Shown here one piece after another: positions 11,152 through 62,988 of a stretch of 64,000 nucleotides of DNA. This DNA is from Candidatus Pacearchaeota archaeon. GTDB taxonomy: Archaea; Nanobdellota; Nanobdellia; Pacearchaeales; GW2011-AR1. The stretch covers positions 1,091 through 65,090 of the forward strand of contig JAGLGM010000001.1 of NCBI GenBank assembly GCA_023144035.1, given 5' to 3'. The position numbers and the translations under genes were made by a program. Below the pieces are notes generated by a model. That model was not told the origin of the DNA, made no database searches, and was given only the letters and a program-made list of their open reading frames with translations. Position 1 is the stretch's first letter. Every line of letters begins with the position of its first letter.

Positions 11152-11223
11152 CGCCCACGCCGGGAATCGAACCCGGGTTGCATCCGCGACAGGGATGAGT
11201 CATAGCCGTTAGACCACGTAGGC
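11152..11223 (-). tRNA. tRNA-Asp (anticodon GUC)
   Basis: Hand-folded cloverleaf: acceptor GCCUACG/CGUGGGC, anticodon stem CAUCC/GGAUG with loop CUGUCGC, T-arm CCGGG-UUCGAUU-CCCGG, discriminator G, no encoded CCA. Confidence 0.8.
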
Positions 11224-41900: not shown

Positions 41901-42819
41901 TAGGAAAAAGGAAAAAGGAAAGTTCATCAAACGAATAAAAAAACCAATCAAATATTTGAATAACAAATTTAACCAAGTAGGTTTGTTTTTATTAAGAAAA
42001 GAGAAAACTCTTACTAAAGAAGAAAAATTATTATTTAAGAAAATAAAAAAACAAATAAAACAAAATCATAATCATGTTTTTAGATTATTAAAAAAGGAAT
42101 TTAAAAAAAATAATCCTAAAGAAATTCTACAAGAATTCGAAGAAAAGTTTATTAAAACAGGTAAGTTATCGAAAAAACATCTTAAAACTTTGATAGAAAT
42201 TATAAAAGCAGAAATAATTCTTAAAACAAAAAAATTACAAACAGAAATTAAAAAAGACAGTTTAAAAATTAATCACCAAATTAACAAAGTAACTAAAAAT
42301 TCAGCAGAATTGATTAATGATTTTCTTGAACAAGTTCACAAACCTAAATTAATTTCTGTTCAAAAAGAGAAAAAAAGATTAAAGAAATATAAAAAATATA
42401 TTACAAAATTATTTTTTATTAAAAAAACAAGAAAAAGAACAAAAGAAAAAAGAAGATTCTATTCTAAAAAAATTAAATTAATAAAACAATTCAGAAAAAA
42501 AGTTTTGAGAGATATTAAAAAAATTGGGAAAAATACCAATAAATTTCCTAGAAAAAGTAAAAAAAGATTAAAGAAATATAAAAAGTATCTTACAAAATTA
42601 TTTTTTATTAAAAAAGTAAGAAAAAAACAAAAGAGAAAACAAAAAAAACTAAAAAAATTCTTTGAGAAATTCGTTAAAAAAGAAAAGAAAGGACATAAAT
42701 TAATAATGAATTTTTTCAAAAAAGATTTAAATATTAAAAAAATGAAAAAGAAGAAATTAAATCTGCTTACATGGTTAAAGACATGGTTAAAAAAACAAGA
42801 AAAGAAAAAATTTGATTAA
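29911..42819 (+). CDS. giant surface protein (4302 aa): N-terminal signal anchor, cadherin-like VNDNPW repeats, many Ig/fibronectin-like repeats with dense N-x-S/T sequons, Thr/Pro linker, C-terminal TM anchor and ~440-aa poly-Lys/Arg cytoplasmic tail
   Basis: uninterrupted 12.9 kb ORF; VNDNPW/VNDQPW motifs at 31.2-32.0 kb; PGTPTTPITPTSTST linker ~40.7 kb; TM ~41.2 kb; K/R-rich 41.5-42.8 kb. Confidence 0.85.
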   Translation: MSYKGVIKFRRVKIKKDPLPKEKIIFSIFLGLFFFILMVSFFNNANLWNTGSVISENTGESKNTAIINFVIELTDAKHLDFNKNFISNIYEEVRELDNIWSKQISSEEYIRVTFEENLTSKKDITIYPRIISGDPRIEVYETNETQLIAEFTNLISNEYNKVFLTKLIGKQDTFDLLILGGSLIIDHIIDPEEILTPLLHANSQLNSVALDSAQITAITSDDASDITIGKAIILTVEMSELSGTIDTLTDANCSLVYSTATSYPADSITFEVYDSFGGNQVAISTLPASDGVDSLVHLLDLETTGLAASEVTTMVVYVTNTIAAKGYNLLVDQIYCTIDYTEAVPNTPPTLSGLPEVNDDEDFGTNNSVMDLWDYASDAEDADSVLTYGINSESETSIVDCDIYDSHYITCTSQANASGYSDVNVSVTDTGGLKDSDVFRFTVNTINDDPWSDSIANPASINEDSGLNDNIVSITTINTAFRDVEEDQSPTSCTIASETDTTAVDCEVDGSYNVDCTTQANQSGSNIVTLNCCDSGSSCTDMDTFTVTVDAVNDNPWNDGLSNPGNVNEDSGLADNIITKATLDNTFRDVEEDQSPTSYAIQSQTGSSIINCALDGSNNIDCTTQANQSGSNIVTVRLSDSGTLYTEMTFTITVDSINDQPWVDGLSDPTNLSYNSGLNQDVISSTEIDDNFRDVENDQNPSSVVILSQTHTEIVNCELDGHALDCTTQTNQHGISTVTLNYTDAEGLSITDSMDISITPDTTTPTIQVQSPTNNSYTVSTIYFNATASETIDTWIVNYNGTNITHTINTSLEVEDGNHNLLLYANDSANNFGLNDTIYFTVDTQEPSLSNEFSNETEISQNELFCLNITVTDSLNSIDTVYAEVWDTSSWANYSMSEDGTSCSGTSIDGIYGVEIIGSNVGLWNYSKVYANDSLNNLNSYDFSDLTINVTAPADSTYPQFANFQTYPSNNSEYSLNYNYQFNSTITFTNSTVYLSFNGENYSATNDTVDNFYVNTGSISAGTYDYFWWSYGNGSLKNYNQSNTKDYTIATNNSDCQVLFNETSSLEYGNSFRVYTDCDSTFTLYKNGTTIDNNSEQNLGADAYNFTVQRADATNYTNYYDEAQFIISQATPVMTYYLNSVQNNISLNYPGTINASAYTTVGTINIYRNGTSVTSENNLDINLVAGYYEYLFNVTGNANYSDVSNEYLYFELNQSTSDCQVLFNETSSLEYGNSFRVYTDCDSTFTLYKNGTTIENNSEQNLGADAYNFTVQRADATNYTNYYDEVQFIINQAIGEVATYIDNLRNNNSVLLNTERWLNATIINPNSGNIKLYYDDNLINQGNSPLSNLTNFTSEGVFNISAIYDGNENYTSDIETWWVTVSSDSAPTINIIYPENTFYNTDIIVLNYTVVDDIDLSHCWYSLNNGTTNSSFDSNCANVTGLTANQGSNTWFVYANDSIGQESLDFVTFTKDTIYPNFTSYEKNPATPNEDQDIQVNVTITESNIDKVILEWDSTNYTITTSNNNEYYFTINNGNYTAHDSVTYYWYANDTAGNINKSTQQSFTVANQIPSVSAPEVNNTTPYTNDLISCNSGTFSDDDAEDTEQARYFKWYDTDVEISGQTSQTLDLTTAGLDKGDVILCSIRVYDGYDNSSYQNSSNSATIQNSNPIISNLQTTVSWNANGSTYTYDYEVTDLDSDSFIWYDNTTLFNINSGTGVISDIPTENEAGTYLIEINVSDGTVNTTDIFSYTINDVGSPNIDFQPPTETNESQLTRDYIQVNITASDSIGIDTITIYLYNQTSLVNETTNPTSPYFVNFTNLPDEFYYFNATVNDTSGNTNQTETITVSTDTGAPTINSVAPTETSGIHKNQNYVEVNVTASDPNLDKIIIRLYNSAHTQIDSTTTSSSPNFANFTGLNNGLYYYNVTANDTFGNTDSLETKNITLDTTKPSVLYNPSTDADNSFVNRNWILINISANDTNLDSARMEFDSTNETFANNDENNYWENKTSLSNGDYSFYSWANDSAENYNFTTTRTVTVDTINPLIDFAIETSINNSNLSQNYIFVNATLTETNFQNITYKLYNSTSLVNETIYTTQTLNINWTLLPNEIYTYNITTSDKASNLNSTATRTITLDTVLPQLNIIYPQSNTYTVDITQLNYTYTETIPDKCWWSNNSGIWNSSLQTCGTNWTGLTSNEGSNTWTIYMNDSAGNENSTSVIFTKDTAYPAVTINSPLNQTYDTTTILFNVTATDGGGISACEYSLSDGLDNNSMSQSGNFWTATNSSMIQGSHTVNFYCNDSSGNLNDTKQETFFIDSIYPLISFTTGTENNDTSLVRNWIFANVTVTENNFENITYILYNSTEEVNTTTYTTEIKEINWTGLSDEVYTYNVTICDLVNKCNTTETRTIRLDTSNPEIYYNPNTDSNNSFVNKNWVFINITASDLTKDSVRLEWGGTNETFSNSDGDLYWENKTGLSETVYNFYAWINDSSGNLNSTATRTVTIDLTKPSITNLVESPTDPTSWTSSSTYQFNATITDTNLDTVLIEFDNVNYTPTKTGDVYNLTLNNLVAGNYNYYWYANDSAGNVNQTSDSYTINKNTENCQILFNESSPQTYPATFLVYTDCNSDFTLTKNGTTISNNTEQILSASAYNFSVQRTDTVNYSNTIDESQFIVNQATGNITLLINDSALNQSGPYGTQTNVSATTSYGSVTLYRNETEITSENNVYVTLAANYYNYTAYSSGDQNHSSASITKFVTITKTNSEINLTLNETRGNITIVQDSEIYLNTTTISGDSSATLKMYDSGTLINQGNSPIINLTTFSSVGEFNITGIYVESENFTGYSETWWVNVTETPDTENPSVASLTKTPSSPTTYSLSQIYEFNATITDNRNIHTVLIEFDGTNYTPTNLVGNIYNFTINNLSVGNYNYRWYANDTSGNMNSTENSSYIINQATPSLSLNANPSWSETYLTQTTVTGSECPAQLTSECKLYRNDTGIVDNPNIVTLGVGIYNYTYNTTGNTNYTSYSNSSNLIISQNTGSCSIVFNESSSITYPSTFKVWTNCTSDFILYRNQTTIDNNSEQNLGAGAYNFTVMRTDATNYTNYYDEQIFQINKATGEVATYIDNQQSNKSLEQYTEIYLNATLETGTGNIKLYNNETLINQGSSPLNNLTNFTIIGLYNITTIYDGNENYTSDIETWWVNVTEADVTPPQISIIYPQNISYSEIQTQLNYTASDNFGLNLCWYSVDNGQTNTTKNCNENITGLNSGQGSSTWNVYANDSKNNLNFSSVTFFVDSILPTIQFESPTETSGNSLGKNYLQVNVTASDDNLNTITFYLYNSTSLVNETSYLSFPYFINYTGLSAETYYFNATANDTLGNNISTETRNISLVLPELTIYKPNNETYISSKDIPLRYSAEYEDYVWYNINQTENITITGNTTFNTTQGQHTLYLYANNTLGETVKNVSFSVDIAKFVVFYNEFKDEGSSTDFNQSSYEDIQNLSDIVLENADYGKIEFNEIINLTDDTNISDNEADLDTYINISSNLIEIDSTVLPNFNKSATLYLYNLTFITPRILKDGVICPSTICTQQSYSGGTLIFNVTGFTTYSAEEIPGTPTTPITPTSTSTGGGWSIECIKDSDCEEEDQVCLNSKCVKLFDIKITNFESPVKLGEFFEFTYLLKGMANISGDVQVLFWIEKEGESVTSGSDVIYVGNFEEKIETTKIFLPSTVASGTYQFFVKLNYEGYTVQSHRTIEIEVEGEIAKITSIEEINFLKKYVISFLIGLAILILGLIFYIERKKIKEKFLQEEKCIKKHKTSILVFCLFLVIGILAYYLKLFDLAAKTILKLIKSPYLFYILGAIILLIILKRLITIAKKREFVNKFKKWKNKRRIKKRLKKKYKSEVKKIKKHLKTVTKIRAERKQEARRKHRKEYIKALIRFRIRKKKKATSKKRKKKIKKSHKLKREKFKAKLKKKIQKFFFKLSKLKILKKHKEKIKEKRKINKPRKKEKGKFIKRIKKPIKYLNNKFNQVGLFLLRKEKTLTKEEKLLFKKIKKQIKQNHNHVFRLLKKEFKKNNPKEILQEFEEKFIKTGKLSKKHLKTLIEIIKAEIILKTKKLQTEIKKDSLKINHQINKVTKNSAELINDFLEQVHKPKLISVQKEKKRLKKYKKYITKLFFIKKTRKRTKEKRRFYSKKIKLIKQFRKKVLRDIKKIGKNTNKFPRKSKKRLKKYKKYLTKLFFIKKVRKKQKRKQKKLKKFFEKFVKKEKKGHKLIMNFFKKDLNIKKMKKKKLNLLTWLKTWLKKQEKKKFD
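33070..33766. repeat. recent internal duplication in giant gene (208 bp x2, ~5 mismatches, period 489 bp)
   Basis: 33070..33277 vs 33559..33766 near-identical; more divergent copies near 37.7 and 39.0 kb. Confidence 0.85.
41500..42819. repeat. low-complexity Lys/Arg-rich coding region with internal repeats (KKRLKKYKKYxTKLFFIKK x2)
   Basis: 42370..42430 vs 42565..42625 similar; AAA/AAG-dominated. Confidence 0.7.
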
Positions 42820-49712: not shown

Positions 49713-50015
49713 CTAATCTTGAGAATTTAAGATTCTCTCTTCTGTTTCATCTGAGAAATCTAAAAATAAAGGATATTTAAGATATGTCTTAAATTTTGTC
49801 CTAAAAATTTCATCTTGTTCTCTAACATAATTAACTACCATTTTTAATCCTTTATTACATTTTTGATTATCAGCCATATAAATTGCTAATTCTTTTGGAT
49901 TCATTGTTCTTAATCTTTTTAAAACAGAAGATTCCAAATTTTCTGTATTAGGATTTTCAAATAAAGAAACCAACTCTTCCACAGATTTAGGATAATTCAT
50001 CATTCTGTCAACCAT
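49713..50015 (-). CDS. small hypothetical protein with conserved upstream motif
   Basis: 100 aa; motif TTCTAGTATAATAATACTTAAA ~30 bp upstream. Confidence 0.4.
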   Translation of the reverse strand: MVDRMMNYPKSVEELVSLFENPNTENLESSVLKRLRTMNPKELAIYMADNQKCNKGLKMVVNYVREQDEIFRTKFKTYLKYPLFLDFSDETEERILNSQD

Positions 50016-50041
50016 ACCTTTTATTCTATCTTATTATTTAA

Positions 50042-50060
50042 GTATTATTATACTAGAATT
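50042..50060 (-). promoter_or_regulatory. promoter-like motif copy 1 (GTATTATTATACTAGAATT on + strand)
   Basis: shared with 50293..50320 and 50627..50650. Confidence 0.45.
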
Positions 50061-50262
50061 ATTCATCCTTCTTCTTAAAATTATAATTAAGTAAATTTTG
50101 AACTATTTGTTCTTCCATAACTACTCTGGCTTCTAACATTTTTGAGGGAGGCATAGCAAGACAATTAGATATAAATTTCTTATAAACTTCCTTATTTTTT
50201 TCTATATATTTAACTGCCTTTTCATAAGACATATAACCTATATTTTTTAAATTGTTAAGCAT
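50059..50262 (-). CDS. small hypothetical protein with conserved upstream motif
   Basis: 67 aa. Confidence 0.4.
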   Translation of the reverse strand: MLNNLKNIGYMSYEKAVKYIEKNKEVYKKFISNCLAMPPSKMLEARVVMEEQIVQNLLNYNFKKKDE

Positions 50263-50292
50263 ATATTTTTAAGTTAAAGGACTTTTTTAAAT

Positions 50293-50320
50293 ATTATTAT
50301 ACTAGAATCAATCATTCATC
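50293..50320 (-). promoter_or_regulatory. promoter-like motif copy 2, also carries 19-bp copy of gyrA 3' end (50302..50320)
   Basis: tattattatactagaatcaatcattcatc; ctagaatcaatcattcatc identical to 53751..53769. Confidence 0.5.
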
Positions 50321-50348
50321 ACAATTATTGTTAGAAATCTTACAAAAT

Positions 50349-50600
50349 TTATTTTACTAGCCCTTTTAATTCATTTGCAACTTCTTCTGAAAGATTCTTA
50401 CACATTATTAAAAATTTTCCATCAATTGACTTTGTAATAACCTGACCATCATTTTTTAGATAAAAACATGCTGATTTTTCTTTTTGGTCTATTTGTATAT
50501 TTTCTTTTATTTTATCTAAATAATCTGTTATTCCACCTATTTGCATAACACTGCATACTAAAGATCCTTGATATATCCAATTGACTTTTTCTAAACTCAT
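50349..50600 (-). CDS. small hypothetical protein with conserved upstream motif
   Basis: 83 aa. Confidence 0.4.
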   Translation of the reverse strand: MSLEKVNWIYQGSLVCSVMQIGGITDYLDKIKENIQIDQKEKSACFYLKNDGQVITKSIDGKFLIMCKNLSEEVANELKGLVK

Positions 50601-50626
50601 ACAAAATCCATCAATCCTTTATTTTT

Positions 50627-50650
50627 AAAGATTATTATACTAGAACTAAT
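50627..50650 (-). promoter_or_regulatory. promoter-like motif copy 3
   Basis: agattattatactagaactaat ~45 bp upstream of ATG 50600. Confidence 0.45.
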
Positions 50651-50697
50651 AGAGGTTAAGAAGGAAATTATTTAAGTGCAAGGTTCTTAAAAAAGAT

Positions 50698-50883
50698 ATG
50701 AAATATAAAGTACACAAATTGAATCTTAAGTTATCAAAAGAATCTAAGATGTTAGAAAACTTCCTTAATAATTTAAAGGGAGAAGTAGTATCAATAATAC
50801 CTGATGTTAGAAATTTTTTCTTATTTTATGGTGCAAGAGTAAGTTCTGTTATTATTGTTGAAAAGATAAAAGGTAAGAAATAG
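50698..50883 (+). CDS. small hypothetical protein
   Basis: 61-aa ORF. Confidence 0.25.
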   Translation: MKYKVHKLNLKLSKESKMLENFLNNLKGEVVSIIPDVRNFFLFYGARVSSVIIVEKIKGKK

Positions 50884-50927
50884 TTAATTCTAAATATGAT
50901 TGGTTATTAGAGGATTCATGGAAAAAA

Positions 50928-51605
50928 TTATTTAATTTTTGATTCCAAATTGTGGTAAGATTTAGGAATATTTTCTACTTGTTCTATTTGATATTTTTGA
51001 GATTCTTTAGCTTTATTAGGAGTTGCAGAATATATTAAACCCATTGCCCCCATAGACGCAGCAATTAAACCAACTGCAATTGTTTTTTTAATTTTTGAAC
51101 CTTGCCTTTTTACTAAATTAGGATATGATTTTCTATTACATTCTTTTATTCCTGTTAAATCTCTAAAAACATCTATAGAATATCCCATAGGACTTCCATT
51201 AATTCCTCCGAGTATTGAAGCACTTATAGTTCCTATTGCTATTTTCTTGAAATCTAAATCTTCTCCAGCCATTAATTGAGACAAAGTATACATTGGAGGT
51301 GTAATAGCTAAATTCAATGCAAAAGCATACCCTATATCATGAGCATGTTGAACTACTTCTTTTGTTTTATTTGTGATTTTAAACAATTTTTTAGATAAAT
51401 CTCTCCCTTTTCCAAAAACATAACCAAGACCTCCACAAGCAACAATAGTTCCTACTACTCTGGCATTTATTGACATTTCGTCAGACATTCCAGCAACACC
51501 TACTTCAATAGCAGCAAAAAGAGGATGAGATTCTACTAACATTGCAAGAGTATCTACTGCATAAAACTTTGAGTCTTTCTTTATCCAATCTTTAACTTTT
51601 CCCAT
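50928..51605 (-). CDS. hypothetical protein (Gly-rich, amphipathic)
   Basis: 225-aa ORF. Confidence 0.45.
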   Translation of the reverse strand: MGKVKDWIKKDSKFYAVDTLAMLVESHPLFAAIEVGVAGMSDEMSINARVVGTIVACGGLGYVFGKGRDLSKKLFKITNKTKEVVQHAHDIGYAFALNLAITPPMYTLSQLMAGEDLDFKKIAIGTISASILGGINGSPMGYSIDVFRDLTGIKECNRKSYPNLVKRQGSKIKKTIAVGLIAASMGAMGLIYSATPNKAKESQKYQIEQVENIPKSYHNLESKIK

Positions 51606-51686
51606 ATTTCTCTCTTATTCTTTTTACTTATAAATCTTACTAATTATAATCAACAAATATAAAGATCTTAGATTCTTAACTAATTC

Positions 51687-51818
51687 ATGGAAAGAAAAAC
51701 ACTTCTAATAATATTAATAATACTAATTTTAGGAGTAATAGGATTATCTGTTTTCCTTATTTTCCTTAGACAGAGAGCAACTCTTAAAAAACACCTTATT
51801 TTCCCTATAAAAATATAG
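51687..51818 (+). CDS. possible 43-aa single-TM micro-protein
   Basis: MERKTLLIILIILILGVIGLSVFLIFLRQRATLKKHLIFPIKI; below ORF-track cutoff. Confidence 0.25.
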   Translation: MERKTLLIILIILILGVIGLSVFLIFLRQRATLKKHLIFPIKI

Positions 51819-51937
51819 GATAGTGTGTGTGAGCAACACCTTTATAAAGAATAAATCATTTTAATTATTACATCAAAAGCCATGAGGTTCAACCAATGCT
51901 ATTTGGGGGGGCTAATTGGGTGTTACATTCTAACGAA

Positions 51938-52534
51938 TCATTGATGTAACTTTTTCCTTTTATTAAGAAATTTTTCTATATCCTCTAATGTAATATTAAC
52001 ATAAGTATCTAAACGATTCTCAATATCATTTGACATCAATTTGGCATACCTATGTGCTAAAGACCAAGGAGGCAATTTTTGATGTAATGGAACCCCTATT
52101 TTCATTCTTCCTTTCTCTTGCAATAAAAATTTTAAATTTTGGTCTATTATTCGTTCTTTATTAGAAAAATCTCTACAAATTGTTAAAGAAATTTTTTCCT
52201 TTATGTTTAATGATTTAAACAAGTAATAAATAATTATACAATATATTCTAACTTTAAAAGTGCCTCTCTTAGTTTCAAATGAGTTATAAGGATAACGATA
52301 TTTATTTTCTTCCCATTTTTTTACTATTATTTTTATAAGTTCTTCATCGAATCTAAATCCTTTTATTTGACTTTTTCCATTCACACTTTGTTTATTTGCT
52401 ATACAAATAGTATATCTTGGAATAAATAAATCGCTTCCACTAACATCAATTTCAAATTTCATATAAAAGAATATCCCTCCCAGTTTATAAGACTTTGGCG
52501 TTACTTTATTTTTTTCAGAATAAAACCTAATCAC
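51938..52534 (-). CDS. hypothetical protein
   Basis: 198-aa ORF. Confidence 0.4.
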   Translation of the reverse strand: MIRFYSEKNKVTPKSYKLGGIFFYMKFEIDVSGSDLFIPRYTICIANKQSVNGKSQIKGFRFDEELIKIIVKKWEENKYRYPYNSFETKRGTFKVRIYCIIIYYLFKSLNIKEKISLTICRDFSNKERIIDQNLKFLLQEKGRMKIGVPLHQKLPPWSLAHRYAKLMSNDIENRLDTYVNITLEDIEKFLNKRKKLHQ

Positions 52535-52949
52535 AACCCAAATATTTCCTCATATTCCTATTACTCAAATCTTTCTTAGGTTTAGAAAAATGCACATCAT
52601 ATTCCAAACCCATTGAGTGATACACATTTGTCCATTCATTATGGTCAGTTAGATTATCATTATTTATATCAGCTACTAATTTCAATTCATTATATAATTT
52701 ATTTCTTTCATTGAAATATTTAATATTACTATGTACATTGTAAATAAGAAACAAACTCATCGCTCCAATAATTAATAGGCCTTTTAATCTTTCTTTTCTT
52801 GTAAATGTTTTATCTTCTAAATCTGTTTCATGTAAGCTCATCTTTCCCTCATTTATTAAAGAACCTCCTACTTTAATTTTTGTTTTTCCCATTTTAACCT
52901 CCGTACCTTCTGTATTTTTTACACCATCTGAAGAAATTATGAAAGTCAT
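52527..52949 (-). CDS. hypothetical protein with one TM segment
   Basis: 140-aa ORF overlapping neighbours. Confidence 0.4.
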   Translation of the reverse strand: MTFIISSDGVKNTEGTEVKMGKTKIKVGGSLINEGKMSLHETDLEDKTFTRKERLKGLLIIGAMSLFLIYNVHSNIKYFNERNKLYNELKLVADINNDNLTDHNEWTNVYHSMGLEYDVHFSKPKKDLSNRNMRKYLGCD

Positions 52950-53617
52950 TTTTTAATTTCCTTATAGCTTTTTATACATTCTTTAGATAACTCTCCTCTT
53001 CCTAATACTAAATATCTAAAATTACCACTTCTTAATTCACTAGAAAAACCCATGGGAACACTAGAAATTATTACCTCTTTTCCAGCTCTTTTAATTAATT
53101 CCATAGAAGGAATAAAATCGGCATCTCCAGAAAGAAGGATACAACAATCACATTCTTCTTCAATTAAACATTTAGCAATCATATCTACAGCTATTTTCAC
53201 ATCAATTCCTTTTTCTTTTTTTAAAACAGTCCCTAAGGAATCTATAAAGGCAGTTTCTACTGCTGGTTTGCACACTTTACATAAATCTAAAAGCCCTATT
53301 ATCTCTTTTCTCTCAGCAATAATTTCTTTAGTTGAATTTCTTTGCAATTTTCTTACTGTGACTTTAAGCCCTTCTTTTTTTAAATCAGATAAATATTCCA
53401 TATGCCTATAATACATTGTTTGCCCATCTGCAAGACTTGGAACAGAATTATAATATCTTATTTCTACGACATCTAAATCAAACTTTTTAGCAATAAATTT
53501 AGAAAGTTTCCAAAAATCAATATCTGATGGCTTTGAAACCCATTTTTTTACATTATGATACCAATTATTTCCATCTATAAATACAATTACTCTTTTGTTA
53601 GACATATAAAAAAACAA
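52946..53617 (-). CDS. NYN/LabA-like PIN-fold nuclease domain protein
   Basis: VFIDGNNW...GIDVKIAVDMI...ILLSGDADF conserved acidic residues of NYN domain. Confidence 0.65.
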   Translation of the reverse strand: MFFYMSNKRVIVFIDGNNWYHNVKKWVSKPSDIDFWKLSKFIAKKFDLDVVEIRYYNSVPSLADGQTMYYRHMEYLSDLKKEGLKVTVRKLQRNSTKEIIAERKEIIGLLDLCKVCKPAVETAFIDSLGTVLKKEKGIDVKIAVDMIAKCLIEEECDCCILLSGDADFIPSMELIKRAGKEVIISSVPMGFSSELRSGNFRYLVLGRGELSKECIKSYKEIKK

Positions 53618-53750
53618 GGAAAGGATATAAATAAATCTTTCTAGATTATAAGCCCCGCATTCCTCCTATAAAAGAAGTCATACGGGGGATATTATAATAT
53701 ATTATAATCAAATATATTTATAAACCTTACTAAATCCCTTATAAATTTTC

Positions 53751-53769
53751 CTAGAATCAATCATTCATC
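53751..53769. repeat. 19-bp direct repeat (gyrA 3' end, ctagaatcaatcattcatc), partner at 50302..50320
   Basis: exact 19/19 match 3.45 kb apart. Confidence 0.7.
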
Positions 53770-56700
53770 CCCATTGCCATTGTGAACCTTAATCAAATCA
53801 GTCACTTTATCACCTTGTGCAAGCTTAACAATTCTAACACCTTGAGCTGCCCTACCCATTACTCTGATATTCTTTAAAGAAGTCCTTATTACTATTCCTT
53901 TAGCAGTTGTCATTATGATTCCATCTTCTGCATTTACTGACACAGCATTAACAACATCTCCTGTTTTTGTTGATATTTTTAAATTAATAACACCCTTACC
54001 ACCTCTTGCTGTTTTTCTATAATCTTTAACAGCAGTTCTTTTACCATAACCATTTTCAGTAATTGTAAGAATTGCTTCTGTATCTAATATTTCTAAACTT
54101 ACTACTTTATCTTCCTTATCCATTCTAATTCCTGTAACACCATAACTTGCTCTTCCCATATTTCTTATAGAATCAGAATCAAATCTAATTGCTTTTCCTT
54201 TTTGAGTAGCTAGTGAAACTTCTTGACCTTTTTTAACAACTTCTACTCCAATTAAAAAGTCAGAATTATCAACAGGTAAATTAATAGCTTTAATACCTGA
54301 AGCTCTTGGTTTTGCAAAATTACTCAAAGCTATTTTCTTAACCATTCCTTTTTGAGTAGCCATAAATAAATTATCTTCAAAAGTATTTACAGAAATAACA
54401 TTTGTAATTTTCTCATCTTTTAAACTTAAAAGATTAATCAAAGCTTTTCCTTTACTATATTTTTCTGCACTAGGTATATCATATGCTTTAAGCCATAAAA
54501 CCCTTCCTCTTGTAGTAAAGAACATTAAATAATCATGAGTAGAACAAGTAATCAACTGCTTTACAAAATCACCAGTTGCTAAATTACTTCCAATACTTCC
54601 TTTCCCGCCTCTTTTTTGTTCTCTATATTCTTTAACATCCATTCTTTTACAATATCCTTTATCTGTAATAGTCACAACAACTTCTTTTTCTTGAACCAAA
54701 TCTTTCTCAGAAATCTCAGATAATCTTTTCATAACTTGCGTTCTTCTATTGTCTCCATATTTATTCTTTAACTCATTAATTTCTTTTACAATTATTTTTA
54801 AAACTTCCTTAATATCTCCTAAAATCTTTTCATATTCTGCTATTTTTTCTTTCAACTCTTTAGCTTCTTTTTTAAGTTTATCAACTTCTAATGAAGTTAA
54901 TTGCTGTAACTTAGTTTCTAAAACAGCTTGAGCTTGTTTTCTAGTTAATTTAAATTTATTAATCAAACCTTCCAAAGCTTCTGCAGTATTCTTAGATTTT
55001 TTAATTAAAGTTATAACAGCATCTATATTTTTTAAAGCAATTAACATACCTTCAACGATTTCTTGTCTTTCTTTTGCTTTTTTAAGTTCATATTTAACTC
55101 TATTAGTAATCATAATTTTTCTATACTTAACATATTCTTCAACAACTTGTTTTAAATTCATAATCTTTGGTTGTCCGCCTACTAAAGCTAAAAAATTAAC
55201 ATTAAATGAATCTTGAAGTCTAGTATATTTATACAAAGAATTAATAACAAATTTAGAATCTACTCCTTTTCTTAATTCAATAACAATTCTAATCTTTCCT
55301 TTAGAAGATTCATCTCTTAAATCAGAAACATCTTTAATCTTTTTATTTTGAACAAGGTTTGCAATTTGTTCAACTAATGTAGATTTATTTAACATATAAG
55401 GAATCTCTGTAATTACAATTGCTTCTTTTTTCTTGATTGTCTCAGTAGTTAATCTTCCTCTCATTATCATTCTTCCTTTTCCTGTTTTGTATAATTCTTC
55501 CATATCTCCAAAAACAGTTCCACCAGTAGGAAAATCAGGTCCAGTAACAATTTGAGAAAGTTCAGGAATTGTTATATTTGGTTTTTTAATATAAGCAATA
55601 AGAGCATCACATACTTCTGTTAAATTATGTGGAGGAATATTAGTAGCCATACCAACTGCAATACCTGTTGCACCATTTAACATTAATAATGGAATTTTAC
55701 CAGGAAGTAATTCAGGTTCTTTCATTGAATTATCATAATTAGGATTAAACTTTACTGTCTCTTTATCAATATCTTGTAATACTTCCATAGAGATTGGCAT
55801 TAATCTTGTTTCTGTATTATGACTAATAAATCCATTTGAAATAAAAGAATGACAATTGCTATCTACTTTAACAGAATAAACTTTTTGAGAACCTACATCT
55901 TCTATTGAAACAACTCTATCAAATAGATATTGATATGTCAAAAAGAACTCAAATATAGAAGAGTAATCTTCTCCTGTTCTTTGTTTTAAAATTTGGCAGA
56001 TTCTTTCATAATTCTGCCCCATACTAGAATACCTATCAAAATTGTGCTTCATAACAAATTCATCACCAGAATATTTTGCCAATCCCCTAATAAAATCAGA
56101 AATAAAAGGAACAAAATCTGTAGTGGAATAATCTTTTTTATAATTTACAACAACAAATTCTAATTTGGCACTCTTTCTCTGAGAAATAAAACCTATCTCT
56201 TTGTAAAATCTTGAAATATTTCTTTTACTCCTCAAATATAATTTAAAAACATTCTTATATTTATCAAATCTCTTAAAACTTTCTATACCAAATCTTAAGA
56301 AAACTAATTGTAATTGGGTTATAAGTTTTTCACTCATAGAACAACAACTTAGTTCAATCATCTTCTTAGAATAACTTATACTTCCATCTCCTTCAAAATA
56401 AGCTCTTAAAAATGAAGACAAAACTTTCTTTGGGGAAATAAACAATAAATTAGGTATTGTTTTCTTACCAGATTTTACAGCTTCTAATCCAATATTTCTC
56501 AAAAATTCAAGAGTATATCTACAATGACATTCTAATCTAAAATAATCTTTTTTCCCGTATGAACTTGGCTTTCTTTTAAAATTATGTAAAGTGCTATCTG
56601 GAAATAATTTTCTCCATTTTTCTTCAAATATTTTTATTAATTGCTCATCAGAATTACAAAACTCTAACTTGTTTTTAGAAATTGAGCCTTCTGAAATCAG

Positions 56701-58713
56701 TAAACCTAAAATCATTGCTAAATCATTATTTAATTTTTCAGGTAAAATCCTTTTATGTTGATGTTTACTTTTAATTACAGGACAATATTTTTTTAATTCA
56801 ATCTCATTTTCAGGCCAAAAATTATCATTTAACCTATCTAAAACAGTAATATCTCCTTCTTTAATTTGTTCTAACAATTTCCAACAAAAAGCAGGCTTTC
56901 CAAATTCATCCTTTATTAAAGTTAAAACAGGGTGGTTTTTGGTTCCAGTTAAATTATACCCTTTATTTGTAGTTATTTTTATTGTTTCATGCTCTCCTGA
57001 ATCAAACCATTTTGAAGCATTGTTAATTTTTTTGTCTTTACTCATTATCTTTAAATCTATATCTTCTTTAGTTGAAATTTCATCAGCTCTCTGTAAACCT
57101 TTTTCAGTAACAATTAAAGAATCTCCTGCAACACAATATCTCATAGCAGCAGGAGGATCACCGTCAATTGAGTTATGTACAAAAACTCCAGAAGATAAAG
57201 CAAAATTATGTGTCTTATCTACAGTAATATCATAAACAGCAACAAATTCATTTAATAATTCTGTCCTAACAACTTTATGATTTCCATTTAATTCTAAAAG
57301 AACTAAATTTTTACTATCTTGAAAGTATTTTTTAATTCCTAAATCCCAGCTAGTGAAGCTTTTTGTTCCAAAAACTTCTTTTCTCACTCTTTCATAATTT
57401 TCATTATTTATACTTAAATTATTTTCAATAAGATGGCTACATATATTAAGAAACTTTTTCTTTCCAGTAAGATTAGTCTCTCTTTTTTTATTAGAAGCAA
57501 TTATTTTTTCATTAAACAATTTTTTATATTTTGGAATTTGCCACAATCCTTTCATAGTTATAGAAGCTGTTTTTCTTATTTCTTCAATTCTTTCAGGATG
57601 TTCTTTTAAATATTTTTTATTGATTTCACTCAAAGTTATAGTCATTTGTTTCCTATAATCATCTTTTTTCCAATTTTTCAGATTTCTTTCAGACATTCTT
57701 TTAGAATAAGCTTCTCTATTTTTTTTATTACTCCAAAATCTCTTTCTACCTTCATCTAATTTCTTTCTATATTCAGGGTCTGTTTTATGTTTTTGAGAAG
57801 TAAAATTATGGTGAACATTCCAATGTTCTTTCCAAAACATCCTTCTAATATTATCTGGATCATTATTTAATTTATCAAAGTCTACATGATGACGAATCCT
57901 ACCTGTGTTTTTTTGATAAATATTATTGTGTATATTCCAATCATCAGCAAGCATATGTACAAAATCCCAAGAATCTTTTTTTGGTTGAAAAACCATATTA
58001 TAGCCAATAAGTTTTGGATTAGAATCATCTTTTTTTGTAGACAATTTCATATAAACAGGCATTAATGAATCTCCAGAATCTAGATCTTTAGCTTCTTTAT
58101 AACTTCCATCTCTTAACATAAATTTGTGATTTAAAGTACATTTTATTTCTTCACCATTATCTAAAACTACTTTCATAACTTCTGTATTTATTTTGGTCTT
58201 TCTTGGATTTTTAATTTCAGCCATTTTAACATTTAAATCCTCATCAATTGTAAAAGTAAAATTTCTTTTCCCTTGCTTATTTTCTTTTATCAACTCTAAA
58301 AAAGATAAATCTCTTCCATCAGTTAATTTAACTTCAGTATCTGCAGTAAAACAACCAAAATTACCTTGTCCAAATACTAAAGGATATCTTAAAGAAAAAT
58401 TCTGTGCCATTCTAACCATTGCATCATAAACAGCAACATCTCCGTGAGGATGATATTTACCAATAACATCTCCAACTAATCTTGCGGACTTTTTAGTTTG
58501 AGTATTTGGTTTTAAACCCATTTGATTCATTGCATATAAAATTCTTCTTTGAACAGGTTTTAATCCATCTTCAATTGCAGGTATAGCTCGACTAACAATA
58601 ACACTCATAGCATAATCTAAATATGCTTTTTTCATTTCTCCAGTTACTTCTGTATTAACTATTCCTTTTTCCATATCTTTTAACTCTGATTCATCTGCTT
58701 TCTTTGGTGTCAT
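53761..58713 (-). CDS. gyrA: DNA gyrase subunit A with two in-frame inteins (extein ~816 aa)
   Basis: [18 protein letters not shown]|intein|[12 protein letters not shown]|intein|TETRL...[15 protein letters not shown]; C-terminal beta-pinwheel repeats. Confidence 0.9.
55816..57135 (-). mobile_element. gyrA intein 2 (440 aa) with LAGLIDADG homing endonuclease, at classical MRY|TE site after catalytic Tyr
   Basis: starts [13 protein letters not shown] block B, LAGLIDADG-like [12 protein letters not shown] and [12 protein letters not shown], ends FISHN|T. Confidence 0.8.
57172..58353 (-). mobile_element. gyrA intein 1 (394 aa) with HNH-type endonuclease insert, between GNFG and SIDGD
   Basis: starts CFTADTEV, block B TLNH, ends VFVHN|S; internal [33 protein letters not shown]-like; no LAGLIDADG. 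Confidence 0.7.
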
Positions 58714-58834
58714 TTTTTCATTTCCACAAGATTTAAATATATCATTCGCTTAAATATTTTATTAATAGATGAAAGAACTCTGACGAATCCCGTCCCTAGA
58801 GGCGGTTAGTAGGATTGACGAATTCCCGATTCTA

Positions 58835-59293
58835 TTATCTTTTCCTCCTTTCAATATTTAATGTTGTATCAATAATTAAACTCATTTTATATTCCTTTGA
58901 ACCTTTTCTTAATTCACTTTCTTTTACAATTTGAGTTTTTCCACCATCAATAAGATCAATCATTTTTCTAAATTTTCTATATTGATAATCATCAATTGAA
59001 ATAAAGATTATGCAATTATTATTTCTCTTAATAAACTCGAAAACTTCAATAAAAATATCCATATTATCCCTACAACTCTTAATTTTTTTCTTAAACAATA
59101 AAGAATCTATTTTTTCTCTTACAAATAATTTTTTCATAGAATTCAAATATGCTCTCTTGTGTTTTAAATTTTTATAATGTTTTAATTTGGAAATTTTCGG
59201 AAGTAATTCTCTTATTTTACTTTTTTCAATAATATTATAACCAATTAAATTTTCAGAATAATCTATATAAATATAATAATCAAATTCTTTCAT
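58835..59293 (-). CDS. hypothetical protein
   Basis: 152-aa ORF, stop overlaps next gene start. Confidence 0.4.
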   Translation of the reverse strand: MKEFDYYIYIDYSENLIGYNIIEKSKIRELLPKISKLKHYKNLKHKRAYLNSMKKLFVREKIDSLLFKKKIKSCRDNMDIFIEVFEFIKRNNNCIIFISIDDYQYRKFRKMIDLIDGGKTQIVKESELRKGSKEYKMSLIIDTTLNIERRKR

Positions 59294-59730
59294 GCTACTT
59301 CCCCCTTATCTTCAAAGTTTTTAACTAATTTAAAAGATGATTGAATTTTATCACCTAAGCCATCTACAATTTTAATATTAAGTTCATTACAAATTTTTGA
59401 TTCAGGAATATCAGTATTTGTTTCAGTAGAACCTTGTTTTTTTCTATCTCCACCATTTGCAAAAATATTAGGTTTTACTAATTCAAGGGATTTACAAACA
59501 GTTCTATCTGTATCAATACTTACAATTGCTTCACTAACACAACTTAATTCTTGAATAATCTTTTTTCTTTCTTCTGCAAGCATAAACACTTTGCCTTTTT
59601 TCATTTTAGTTTGTTTATCATTATTAACAATTACAACTAAACTATCTCCAAGTGCTCTTGCTAACTTAAATAATTCTATATGTCCAATATGTAATGGGTC
59701 AAAATATCCACTTACTGCTACTTTTGTCAT
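59290..59730 (-). CDS. cytidylyltransferase-like nucleotidyltransferase (TagD/RibL family)
   Basis: VAVSGYFDPLHIGHIELF (HxGH motif) and later FANGGD. Confidence 0.6.
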   Translation of the reverse strand: MTKVAVSGYFDPLHIGHIELFKLARALGDSLVVIVNNDKQTKMKKGKVFMLAEERKKIIQELSCVSEAIVSIDTDRTVCKSLELVKPNIFANGGDRKKQGSTETNTDIPESKICNELNIKIVDGLGDKIQSSFKLVKNFEDKGEVA

Positions 59731-60047
59731 TTTAATTTACTCTCCAACAATGTTTTTTCATAGTTTCTTTCTTCAATTTCATCTTTAATTAAATTAATTC
59801 CTTTCAAACTTAAAGCACCTTTTCCTTCACTAACACGTTCAGCAATATTCTTCATTATGTCTTGAACTCGTTTAGGATAAAATTTTCCTGTATCTATTTG
59901 TTTCTCCATTTCATCAAAACTTTGATTAAGTTCTTCCTTAGTTATTCCATACTTTTTAAGTTCTTCATCAGTTGTACTTGTTACAATATTTTTTAAAGCA
60001 AAATGATAAAGATTTCTTCTCCTTCTTCTCATTCTCATTTCTTTCAT
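59727..60047 (-). CDS. hypothetical protein
   Basis: 106-aa ORF. Confidence 0.35.
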   Translation of the reverse strand: MKEMRMRRRRRNLYHFALKNIVTSTTDEELKKYGITKEELNQSFDEMEKQIDTGKFYPKRVQDIMKNIAERVSEGKGALSLKGINLIKDEIEERNYEKTLLESKLK

Positions 60048-60057
60048 GCAACTTCCT

Positions 60058-60144
60058 CCCCTTTATGCGAAGTTACTACGTCTACGAGCATCATGCTACT
60101 TCTTCTCCCTTTATGCGAAGTTACTACGTCTACGAGCATCATGC
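60058..60144. repeat. tandem duplication: two identical 38-bp units (ccctttatgcgaagttactacgtctacgagcatcatgc) 49 bp apart between two genes
   Basis: 60058..60096 and 60107..60144; each unit on minus strand reads ...GCATGATGCTCGTAGACG...AAAGGG i.e. copies of the stop/RBS/ATG junction. Confidence 0.8.
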
Positions 60145-60453
60145 AACCTCCTCTCCTTTTTCATCTAAGTATTTCATAAATTCATCTTCTGTTAATTCTT
60201 TTTCATTAATATCTGAGCCTATCCATTTACACTTTCTACATTCCCACTCCTTTCCTCCACCTTGTTCTGCATCACTATTACTTAAAACAAGTCCAACATC
60301 ATCACTTCCACATTTAGGACATTCTCTAATCTTGAATGTCTTTCCTGTTTTCTTCTCAGACTTAACTCCTTTTGCTTTTTCATAATCAGCTTTTGAATCA
60401 TATCCTTCTATTATCCAGTCTGGTGTTTTCATTTTTTCTTTTTTCTTTGCCAT
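60139..60453 (-). CDS. zinc-ribbon hypothetical protein
   Basis: CPKCGSDD...CRKCKW. Confidence 0.4.
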   Translation of the reverse strand: MAKKKEKMKTPDWIIEGYDSKADYEKAKGVKSEKKTGKTFKIRECPKCGSDDVGLVLSNSDAEQGGGKEWECRKCKWIGSDINEKELTEDEFMKYLDEKGEEVA

Positions 60454-60454
60454 T

Positions 60455-61036
60455 TTATTTGTTTAATTCTTCTTTTAATTGATTTAAATTTTTAAATAAA
60501 ATCATTTTCATTCCTAATTCTTTTGCAGGAGAAACATTTTCTTCTAAATCATCTATATAAATACATTCTTTTGGTTCAACATCTAACTGTTGTACAACTT
60601 CTTTAAATATTTCAATATTAGGTTTAGCGACTTTAAAATCATAGGAGGTAACAATAACATCAAAAATTTCACCTAAATTATGTTTCTCATTAATCTCTTT
60701 AAACCAATCTTCAAGATGATTAGAAACTAAAGCTAACTTATAATTATCTTTTAGTTTTTTAGCAAATTCTAATACTTCTAATTTAAAATTAAATGAATCT
60801 ATTAACTTAGAACGAAAGGTTTCAGAATCAACTGCTAAAAACTCTGCACATTTTTCCCAAAATACTTTTGAATCAATTTCATTTACTTGTGCTTTAGATC
60901 TATTTTCCTCAGCTAATTTCATAAATTCTTCTGGATCTTTATTTAATTCAAGAGCATAACTTTTACAAAAAGAATCTATTTTTCCGGGAGTACATAAAAC
61001 CCCTCCATAATCAAAAATTATTGCTTTATATTCCAT
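60455..61036 (-). CDS. HAD-superfamily hydrolase
   Basis: motif I IIFDYGGVL, motif III K, motif IV IYIDDLEENV. Confidence 0.65.
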   Translation of the reverse strand: MEYKAIIFDYGGVLCTPGKIDSFCKSYALELNKDPEEFMKLAEENRSKAQVNEIDSKVFWEKCAEFLAVDSETFRSKLIDSFNFKLEVLEFAKKLKDNYKLALVSNHLEDWFKEINEKHNLGEIFDVIVTSYDFKVAKPNIEIFKEVVQQLDVEPKECIYIDDLEENVSPAKELGMKMILFKNLNQLKEELNK

Positions 61037-61053
61037 CTTAAACGTCTAACTCA

Positions 61054-61144
61054 GCCTCCTTTGCATTTTCTTTATGCGAAACATTTCTTTGTGAGCGTCT
61101 ATGAAAATGCTTATACATCAAGCTCTGCCTCCTTTGCATTTTCT
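61054..61144. repeat. 18-20-bp direct repeat of gyrB 3' end (gcctcctttgcattttct) 73 bp apart
   Basis: 61054..61071 downstream of gyrB stop and 61127..61144 inside gyrB C-terminal codons (ENAKEA). Confidence 0.7.
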
Positions 61145-62988
61145 TGAATAAATTCTTTCCTACCTTGAACATCGTCACCCATTAACATTGCAAACACCCT
61201 ATCTGCTTCAACAGCATCCTCAATATATATTTTCTTAATCTTTCTAGTATTAGGATTCATAGTCGTGTCCCAAAGTTGTTGAGAACCCATTTCACCAAGA
61301 CCTTTAAATCTTGTAATATTAGTTGTATTTAATCTTTCCATTGTTCTCTTAAGTTCAGCATCAGAATAAACATAATAATCTTTTTTCTTTCTAATCCTAT
61401 ATAATGGAGGTAAAGCAACATATACATTACCATTTTTAATTAACTCTGGCATAAATCTAAAAAAGAAAGTTAACAACAATGTCTTAATATGTTCACCGTC
61501 AACATCTGCATCACACATAATCACAATTTTATTATATCTTAATCTTTCTAAATTAAATTGATCACCTACTCCTGTTCCAACAGCTGTAATCATATTTGTT
61601 ATTTCTTCACTTGATAATACTTTTATAGGATTTGCTTTTTCAACATTTAATATTTTTCCTTTTAGTGGAAGTATTGCTTGAATTTCTTTATTTCTAGCAT
61701 CTTTGGCAGTTCCTGCAGCTGATAAACCTTCAACAATATAAATTTCAGTATTATCTGCTTTTTTATTTGAACAATCTGCTAATTTACCAGGTAAACCTCC
61801 TAATGAAAAAACATTTTTCCTTCTAACTAATTCTCTTGCTTTTTTAGCAGCTAATCTTGCTTTTGCAGCTTCTGAAACTTTTGACACAATTTTATTTGCA
61901 ATAGTTGGGTTTTCTTCAAAAAACTCTGACAAAGCAGAAGTTACAGCAGAATCTACAAAACCTTTTACTTCAGAATTACCTAACTTTGTTTTAGTCTGTC
62001 CTTCAAATTGAGGATCAGGTATTTTTACACTTACTATAGCTGTTAAACCTTCTCTAACATCATCACCAGATAAATTCCCATTTTTCAAAGTTCCTTTACT
62101 TTTACCATAATCATTAATAACTCTTGTCAAAGCTGTTTTAAAACCAGAAACATGAGTTCCTCCTTCAATAGTATTAATTGTATTTACAAATCCAAAAATA
62201 TTATCTTGATAACCATTATTATATTGAATTGCAATTTCTAAAACAGTTCCACTTATTTCTTTTTTAAAATAAATTGGTTTATGATAAACTTCTTTAGATT
62301 TATTTATCCATTTTACAAATTCCATTAATCCTCCAGAAGCAAAAAATTCAAATTTCTTATCTTTAATTTTATCTTCTAAAGATATTTTTAATCCTGCATT
62401 TAAAAAAGTAATTTCTCTAAACCTAGTTTCTAAAACTTTATAATCAAAATCAACAGTAGAAAATATTTCATCATCAGGCCAAAAAGTAACATCAGTTCCA
62501 GTCTCACTTGTTTTCCCAATTACTTTTAATTTTGTTTTTGTATTTCCTTTAGAATATTCTTGAGAATAAATTTTTCCATCCTTTTTTATATTAGCAATTA
62601 GTTTTTTAGATAAAGCATTTACAACAGAAATCCCTACACCATGTAAACCACCTGAAATTTTATAAGAATCTTTATCAAACTTTCCACCAGCATGTAATTT
62701 AGTTAATGCTACTTCAACAGCAGGAATTTTATAAACAGGATGTTTTTCTATTGGAATTCCTCGCCCATCATCTTCAACTGTTACAGAACCATCTTTATTT
62801 AAAATAACTTTAATTTTTTTACAATGTCCTGCTAAAGCTTCATCAACAGAATTATCAACTACTTCATAAATTAAATGATGTAATCCAGTCTTACCAGTAG
62901 ACCCAATGTACATTGCGGGACGTTTTCTTACCCCCTCAAGACCTTCTAAAACTTTTATTTTTGATGCATCATATGTATTTGCTGCCAT
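61111..62988 (-). CDS. gyrB: DNA gyrase subunit B
   Basis: GHKL ATPase motifs YEVVDNSVDEALAG, DDGRGIP, GLHGVG; Toprim EGDSA-like region; 625 aa, no intein. Confidence 0.9.
   Translation of the reverse strand: MAANTYDASKIKVLEGLEGVRKRPAMYIGSTGKTGLHHLIYEVVDNSVDEALAGHCKKIKVILNKDGSVTVEDDGRGIPIEKHPVYKIPAVEVALTKLHAGGKFDKDSYKISGGLHGVGISVVNALSKKLIANIKKDGKIYSQEYSKGNTKTKLKVIGKTSETGTDVTFWPDDEIFSTVDFDYKVLETRFREITFLNAGLKISLEDKIKDKKFEFFASGGLMEFVKWINKSKEVYHKPIYFKKEISGTVLEIAIQYNNGYQDNIFGFVNTINTIEGGTHVSGFKTALTRVINDYGKSKGTLKNGNLSGDDVREGLTAIVSVKIPDPQFEGQTKTKLGNSEVKGFVDSAVTSALSEFFEENPTIANKIVSKVSEAAKARLAAKKARELVRRKNVFSLGGLPGKLADCSNKKADNTEIYIVEGLSAAGTAKDARNKEIQAILPLKGKILNVEKANPIKVLSSEEITNMITAVGTGVGDQFNLERLRYNKIVIMCDADVDGEHIKTLLLTFFFRFMPELIKNGNVYVALPPLYRIRKKKDYYVYSDAELKRTMERLNTTNITRFKGLGEMGSQQLWDTTMNPNTRKIKKIYIEDAVEADRVFAMLMGDDVQGRKEFIQENAKEAELDV

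Follow-up and report, generated by a model that had tools for sequence, protein, structure and literature searches.

Why would a single gene for an essential DNA-cleaving enzyme carry two protein-splicing elements, one on each side of the short segment that ends in its catalytic tyrosine, and what kind of elements are these? The question is raised by the gyrA gene of a 64,000-nucleotide stretch of DNA from a Candidatus Pacearchaeota archaeon (contig JAGLGM010000001.1 of assembly GCA_023144035.1), hereafter the window. The original prediction, made from the sequence alone, had divided the gyrA open reading frame (ORF) of 1650 residues into about 816 residues of GyrA and two inserts of 394 and 440 residues, 12 residues apart. 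Cutting at the junctions it named gave exactly this result, with a joined extein of 816 residues and 12 residues (36 bp) of extein between the inserts. The presence of two inteins in this gyrA was confirmed, with matches far beyond chance. A frameshifted or pseudogenised gyrA was ruled out by the uninterrupted ORF.

Two inteins around the catalytic tyrosine of GyrA

The features of the locus are listed below; Escherichia coli numbering is used for GyrA positions.

53761..58713, minus strand: gyrA precursor ORF, 1650 residues, reading frame uninterrupted
58354..58713, minus strand: N-extein, residues 1-120, ending in GQGNFG, the last residue being G110
57172..58353, minus strand: intein 1, residues 121-514 (394 residues), class 1, assigned to the Ssp GyrB-type family from PF14890, TIGR01445, TIGR01443 and same-site homologs
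57769..58002, minus strand: predicted HNH_3-type nuclease core of intein 1, intein residues 118-195, from invariant residues, PHROG matches, structure model and BFVD
57298..57798, minus strand: basic all-helical region of intein 1, intein residues 186-352, from model and composition, with a presumed function in DNA binding
57136..57171, minus strand: middle extein, 12 codons (S111-Y122), the last residue being the catalytic tyrosine
55816..57135, minus strand: intein 2, residues 527-966 (440 residues), class 1, at the classical GyrA-a site, from NF038098 and 1am2
56683..56712, minus strand: LAGLIDADG motif 1 of intein 2 (PF14528)
56380..56409, minus strand: LAGLIDADG motif 2 of intein 2 (PF14528)
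53761..55815, minus strand: C-extein, residues 967-1650 and stop codon, from TETRLMP to the GyrA C-terminal beta-pinwheel (PF00521, six PF03989 repeats)
61111..62988, minus strand: gyrB, 625 residues, no intein, upstream of gyrA on the same strand

The precursor matched the gyrA equivalog TIGR01063 (NCBIfam) with 1023 bits, and in Pfam it matched the topoisomerase-IV/GyrA domain PF00521 and six GyrA C-terminal repeats (PF03989). The insertion sites were numbered via the full-length structure of E. coli GyrA (6rks), to whose residues 16-223 the spliced N-terminal 208 residues aligned with no net gaps, an offset of +15 from the query position. This alignment placed intein 1 after G110 and before S111, and intein 2 between Y122 and T123, Y122 being the DNA-cleaving tyrosine of the E. 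coli enzyme. By this measure, the segment that bears the catalytic tyrosine is interrupted by both inteins, just past the quinolone-resistance region.

Both inserts had been predicted to begin with Cys, to contain a TxxH block B and to end in HN followed by Ser or Thr, and these residues were all found in place. Intein 1 has C1, TLNH (T73-L-N-H76), VHN (H393-N394) and a +1 Ser; intein 2 has C1, TKNH, SHN and a +1 Thr, its junctions reading MRY/C...SHN/TE (a slash marks the splice junction, here and below). Across 36 relatives of intein 1, T73, H76 and N394 were invariant and H393 nearly so. The Pfam model Intein_splicing (PF14890) matched intein 1 with an E-value of 1.8e-22, covering its residues 17-394, and intein 2 with an E-value of 3.3e-12. 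The intein-terminus models TIGR01445 (E=2.2e-9) and TIGR01443 (E=1.9e-7) matched intein 1, and the TIGR models for the intein N and C termini matched intein 2 as well. We also considered a Hint domain of the bacterial intein-like (BIL) or toxin kind, and rejected it in view of the HN/S terminus, the precise empty alleles described below and the essential host gene.

Intein 2 was expected to be a LAGLIDADG intein directly after the catalytic tyrosine, and three kinds of match agreed with this. LAGLIDADG_3 (PF14528) scored 72.7 bits (E=2.9e-20) against a cut-off of 22.5, and both motifs keep their terminal acidic residue. NF038098, the NCBIfam 'exception' model for GyrA with an intein, aligned intein 2 to the intein that the model itself contains (positions 117-537). 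Among solved structures the closest was 1am2, the GyrA mini-intein of Mycobacterium xenopi (E=8.6e-22), which aligned in its N half as well as in its C half. We found 33 related clusters, and in all 27 of those with a visible N-extein the intein sits at MRY/C with site 1 empty. Judged by these alignments, intein 2 is an archaeal, endonuclease-bearing counterpart of the classical mycobacterial intein at the site for which the name 'GyrA-a' is in use (PMC5050341).

Family, insertion site and endonuclease of intein 1

In a search of 5.8 billion proteins we obtained 200 relatives of intein 1, and the best 120 of these were examined as protein clusters. About 60 of these best 120 were GyrA fragments with the intein at the same site, their junctions reading GQGN[FWMYL]G/CFTxDT and [IV]FVHN/S[IVLMN]DGD. 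The intein was also present at G110/S111 in 10 GTDB species genomes, which comprise metagenome-assembled genomes of Nanoarchaeota, Woesearchaeota and Pacearchaeota, one Staskawiczbacteria (Patescibacteria) and one Omnitrophota. The original prediction had singled out GNFG/SIDGD as a non-classical site. It does differ from the curated one, since NF038098 covers the Tyr site only and not G110/S111, but it is no oddity, the same intein being found there in dozens of protein clusters that come from Patescibacteria, Omnitrophota and DPANN archaea.

In three other hosts, namely GyrB, RadA and a dCTP-deaminase-like protein, we found related inteins with 33-38% identity over the full length. The GyrB-site relatives P0053, P0058 and P0073 aligned with 100% of the query at 35-38% identity to intein 1 (E-values from 1e-52 to 4e-61), with junctions EGDSAGG/C...VHN/SAKQGR. 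The last six residues of intein 1 and its +1 Ser (GVFVHN/S) were identical to those of the published Ssp GyrB S11 C-intein (sequence from PMC2794532). These similarities place intein 1 in the Ssp GyrB-type intein family; it is not allelic with the Ssp GyrB intein, the host site being G110/S111 of GyrA and not GyrB. In a neighbour-joining tree of the family, which is crude and has no support values, the GyrA-site copies grouped together with the RadA mini-inteins nested within them, and the GyrB and dCTP-deaminase copies stood apart. This grouping suggests several jumps between host genes.

Several side observations concern gyrB. At the Woesearchaeota locus L004 (co202), gyrB lies directly upstream of gyrA on one contig; this gyrB has a mini-intein of the intein 1 family (GESAGG/CFSGNT...VHN/SAKMAR) and the gyrA has the full HNH intein. 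Two unrelated metagenome clusters, P0070 (529 residues) and P0095 (457 residues), combine a GyrA N-extein up to GQGNFG or GHGNFG, a mini-intein of the family, and a GyrB C-extein from SSKMARDKEFQAIL... through the GyrB C-terminus. These could be assembly chimeras that arose via almost identical copies of the intein in the two genes, or true recombinants between gyrA and gyrB. At the point where the related inteins sit in GyrB, the gyrB of the window reads IVEGLSAAG/TAKDARNKEIQAILP (EGLSAAG/TAKDAR), compared with the usual EGDSAGG/SAKQGR; it has Leu for the Toprim Asp, AAG for AGG, and Thr at +1. This variant could be an invasion-resistant allele.

We then come to the endonuclease of intein 1, for which an HNH-like block instead of LAGLIDADG had been proposed; the sequence comparisons lent support to this. 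The motif is RHH-x6-NN-x-P-x-N-x2-R-x5-H-x3-H, in which H156, N164, N168, H177 and H181 were invariant and H155, N163, P166 and R171 nearly so (30-36 relatives), all of them being retained in the window copy. Three PHROG families of HNH endonucleases matched the window block (E=0.0017-0.0066); the PHROG HNH families also matched the relatives (best E-value 2.9e-10), with phrog_7545 matching 30 of the 30 compared. Of 36 relatives, 17 were matched by Pfam HNH_3 (PF13392), the best E-value being 1.5e-4. When 1.84 billion representatives were searched exhaustively, the nuclease module of intein 1 was recovered in 401 proteins, in 94 of these with E<=1e-10. In several distant relatives with the module (library-wide E-values from 1e-13 to 1e-17), for example intein-bearing phage portal proteins, HNH_3 scored above its cut-off (54.4 and 50.7 bits vs. 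24.8), and its match overlapped the residues that match the window module.

A structure prediction of the endonuclease region, which had been put forward as a check of this assignment, gave a compatible picture. AlphaFold models of the 246-residue insert (m6e6b1a94298f) and of the 78-residue HNH core each had a mean predicted local distance difference test score (pLDDT) of 93.8. In the predicted core, a strand ending in RHH leads via an Asn-rich loop into a second strand and then into a helix with the H..H pair, which is a beta-beta-alpha topology. Nearly all the named matches among the top 50 in BFVD (predicted viral structures) were HNH, homing or NUMOD4 endonucleases, the best match of the intein 1 nuclease being a phage protein with a Hint domain. 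Homology gives the assignment of the nuclease to HNH_3 good support, and the predicted fold is compatible with it.

The HNH core is followed by about 165 residues that are modelled as all-helical, with six long helices (model pLDDT 93.8) and 26% Lys plus Arg. No NUMOD or helix-turn-helix (HTH) family was detected in this region with Pfam. The basic helical region is probably the DNA-binding arm of the endonuclease, as suggested by the model and the composition. Internal repeats of about 21 residues in this arm, with a K/R..W/Y periodicity, were also considered and dropped, as the repeat units scored no better than shuffles (z<=1.5).

Allele states, homing and rival explanations

The original prediction had suggested looking for intein-free alleles in related genomes, and all four allele states were found: empty, intein 1 only, intein 2 only and, rarely, both. 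The closest GyrA exteins (P0121-P0123, 81-87% identical) have both sites empty and read GQGNFGS[IV]DGD uninterrupted; in P0121, which has 87% extein identity to the window GyrA, both sites are empty and contiguous. The DNA of this empty allele (L012) matched the window at 93 of 126 nt around the insertion sites. Most of the site-1 family consists of alleles with intein 1 only (loci L002-L011 and about 30 clusters in which the bridge is followed by ...RYTE), and 27 clusters have intein 2 only. Double alleles were limited to the window, P0009 and P0025 among the clusters listed. Site 1 is also occupied by mini-inteins of 147-263 residues that have lost the nuclease, such as P0118 (147 residues), as the homing cycle predicts. 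Taken as a whole, the pattern of empty, single, double and mini alleles is that of the standard homing cycle.

The nearest relatives of each window intein reside in alleles without the other intein, and the double alleles are scattered over different parts of the neighbour-joining tree. Double occupancy thus came about by independent invasions, probably more than once. The inteins were also more similar to the window copy than their exteins were (62 vs. 48% identity, respectively, for the Patescibacteria locus; 74 vs. 61% and 71 vs. 59% for two Woesearchaeota), which indicates horizontal spread, including across domains.

A third GyrA site was found to be occupied in L003 (Woesearchaeota, ORF from 428), L010 (Omnitrophota, ORF from 1075) and P0279. 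Its junctions, ...SARIVGD/C...[IL][SA]HN/C[ML]GK[FY]HPHGD, correspond to D72/V73 with the +1 residue changed to Cys, and the site lies inside the quinolone-resistance region. The intein at D72/V73 is apparently of the LAGLIDADG type (DGDGS motif; PF14528 in P0279), and in L003 and L010 it occurs together with the HNH intein at G110/S111.

We consider it very probable that this DPANN gyrA was invaded independently by two selfish inteins, which are removed by class-1 splicing and spread by homing. This reading builds on what was directly observed, i.e. the anatomy of the gene, the homologies, the conservation of the catalytic residues and the empty, single and double alleles. The gene would be translated as a 1650-residue precursor, from which each intein would excise itself by class-1 splicing (a thioester at Cys1, transesterification to the +1 Ser or Thr, then cyclisation of the terminal Asn), to leave an 816-residue GyrA with its active-site segment intact. 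Each endonuclease would cut intein-free gyrA at its own site, 36 bp from that of the other, and recombinational repair of the cut allele would copy the intein in. The double allele would have arisen from two separate invasions. From the sequence we infer that splicing and both nucleases are active in the window copy.

A number of results weigh against this reading where the HNH nuclease is concerned. The HNH block of the window scored 10.7 bits (E=0.42) against Pfam HNH_3, well under the cut-off of 24.8, and the E-values of the BFVD matches were modest (2e-3 to 0.2). A Foldseek comparison of the 246-residue endonuclease model and of the 78-residue HNH core with the PDB gave no significant match, a result that we judged to be uninformative rather than counter-evidence because the motif is so small. 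A profile of the HNH block compared with PDB sequences gave chance matches alone and no solved HNH protein. Lastly, the MCM inteins of haloarchaea suggest that homing into empty alleles is poor when both of two neighbouring endonucleases are active (PMC10643990); by the same interference, one of the two gyrA nucleases could be under relaxed selection. The poor HNH_3 score and this interference would both suit an explanation in which the two inserts are true inteins, with the HNH domain of intein 1 a decaying, inactive relic in the window copy. Intein 1 would then be kept since splicing is required in an essential gene, and would spread via its LAGLIDADG neighbour or by vertical descent; the many same-site relatives that are mini-inteins without a nuclease also fit. 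The window copy, however, keeps H155, H156, N163, N164, P166, N168, R171, H177 and H181, its full 242-residue module shows no deletions compared to relatives that are 60-76% identical, and the nuclease model is confidently folded. A relic seems unlikely to us on this evidence.

The double allele might also be an assembly chimera of an intein-1-only and an intein-2-only strain, joined via the shared 36 bp of extein. Both single-intein alleles are common in similar environments, and the proteins P0070 and P0095, with their GyrA-N/intein/GyrB-C layout, may be intein-repeat misassemblies. However, the usual assemblers end with k-mers longer than an overlap of 36 bp, and 7 public contigs, between 20 kb and 1 Mb in length, carry the exact 1650-residue protein; on one of these, a 241-kb ENA scaffold, an 11-kb stretch around gyrA has the same neighbour genes as the window. 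The two other double alleles, P0009 and P0025, are divergent and come from independent data sets. Base composition was uniform across the exteins and inteins of gyrA, and no other ORF of at least 100 residues was found inside the gene on either strand. A chimera is hardly credible. The position of the inteins raises a further explanation, that they have been co-opted as switches whose redox- or stress-dependent splicing controls gyrase post-translationally. Both begin with Cys and lie no more than 12 residues from the catalytic tyrosine, and a nearly invariant Cys72 adjoins block B in the family of intein 1; that inteins cluster functionally at active sites has been discussed (PMC4760082). Close relatives nevertheless do without either intein and the occupancy is as a selfish homing cycle predicts, so that we regard a switch as very improbable. 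Invasion by two selfish homing inteins remains the preferred explanation.

What may be new here concerns the site more than the elements. No description of G110/S111 was found in the searchable literature, although intein catalogues lie outside that search, so that 'uncatalogued' is not proven. A count of bacterial inteins lists 50 in GyrA and 33 in GyrB (Novikova et al. 2016, PMC4760082), and archaeal GyrA is absent from the table of intein-containing archaeal proteins in the same work. A 2022 survey of archaeal gyrases removed 23 intein-containing GyrA and kept only proteins of 450-1100 residues (PMC9348778). Databases list single-intein alleles at G110/S111 under 'DNA gyrase subunit A, partial' or 'hypothetical protein'. 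Such annotation and filtering would explain how the site has gone unrecorded although it is frequent, and the site thus seems to be undescribed yet often occupied in public data. We give an even chance to the fuller proposal that G110/S111 is a genuine undescribed site ('GyrA-b'), whose HNH lineage has hopped between gyrB, gyrA, radA and the dCTP-deaminase-like gene and been exchanged between DPANN archaea and Patescibacteria or Omnitrophota.

The element itself is of an ordinary, well-understood kind, two homing inteins of which one belongs to a long-known HNH family, and current understanding is not overturned by a gyrA with two inteins. Its significance would lie in a second and, with D72/V73, a third GyrA insertion point, clustered at the DNA-cleavage site and quinolone-resistance region, and in an HNH intein lineage that appears to move among genes of replication and repair and to cross between archaea and bacteria of shared habitats. 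It also offers a natural pair of endonucleases of different families 36 bp apart. Given this spacing and the four natural allele states, the locus could serve as a natural system to test interference or cooperation of unrelated homing endonucleases. Since relatives of the Ssp GyrB intein are established tools of protein engineering, the intein 1 clade might also provide a pool of related splicing domains.

The surrounding window and known systems

Elsewhere in the window, the precomputed annotation of the source contig assigns an NYN domain (PF01936) to the protein encoded directly downstream of gyrA (52946-53617, minus strand). A giant ORF at 29911-42819 on the plus strand (4302 residues; 33% Thr, Asn and Ser together; a hydrophobic N-terminal segment) resembles the very large surface proteins that are common among DPANN archaea and Patescibacteria. 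A tandem repeat at 60044-60160 (48-nt unit, 2.5 copies, 90% matches, score 199) lies in and around the gap between two small minus-strand genes (59727-60047 and 60139-60453). The 64 kb contain one tRNA, tRNA-Asp (GTC), at 11152-11223 on the minus strand, and no other Rfam family reached its gathering score within them. G+C content was about 23-33% over the 12 kb profiled around gyrA (50000-62000).

The closest known system to intein 1 is the GyrB intein of Synechocystis sp. PCC6803 (Ssp GyrB), reportedly the first intein described with an HNH endonuclease, by Dalgaard et al. in 1997. The two have in common the C-terminal hexapeptide and +1 residue noted above, a CF(S/T)xDT start at the N-terminus, an HNH module and a gyrase subunit as host. 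The GyrB-site relatives of intein 1 are 33-38% identical to it over their full length (E down to 4e-61), Ssp GyrB itself being compared by its published C-terminal residues. The difference is in the insertion site, which is EGDSAGG/SAKQGR of GyrB for Ssp GyrB and GQGNFG/SIDGD of GyrA for intein 1. The nuclease of intein 1 in turn resembles the HNH_3 homing endonucleases of phages and introns (I-HmuI-like, PF13392, often with NUMOD4), with which it shares the HH...NN...N...H...H motif and the predicted beta-beta-alpha core. Those enzymes are free-standing, whereas the intein 1 nuclease is nested in a Hint domain and followed by a long basic helical region.

Intein 2 is comparable to the Mxe GyrA intein (GyrA-a, 1am2), which also lies right after the catalytic Tyr with Thr at +1 and has a homologous Hint domain. 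Mxe GyrA is a mini-intein without a nuclease, whereas intein 2 has a full LAGLIDADG domain, and its host is the gyrase of a DPANN archaeon rather than an actinobacterial one, as for the Mxe type.

For the pair of inteins, close spacing is not new, as the DnaB sites a and c are two residues apart (PMC4760082). A close parallel is provided by the haloarchaeal inteins MCM-a and MCM-d (PMC10643990), which are likewise two neighbouring endonuclease-bearing inteins in one essential replication gene, with empty, single and double alleles in nature and no sign of co-homing. The double MCM inteins invade singly occupied rather than empty alleles (PMC10643990). Both MCM inteins are of the LAGLIDADG type, while the gyrA pair consists of one HNH and one LAGLIDADG intein, and the double allele, which is over-represented for MCM in Haloferacales, accounts for a small minority of the gyrA clusters.

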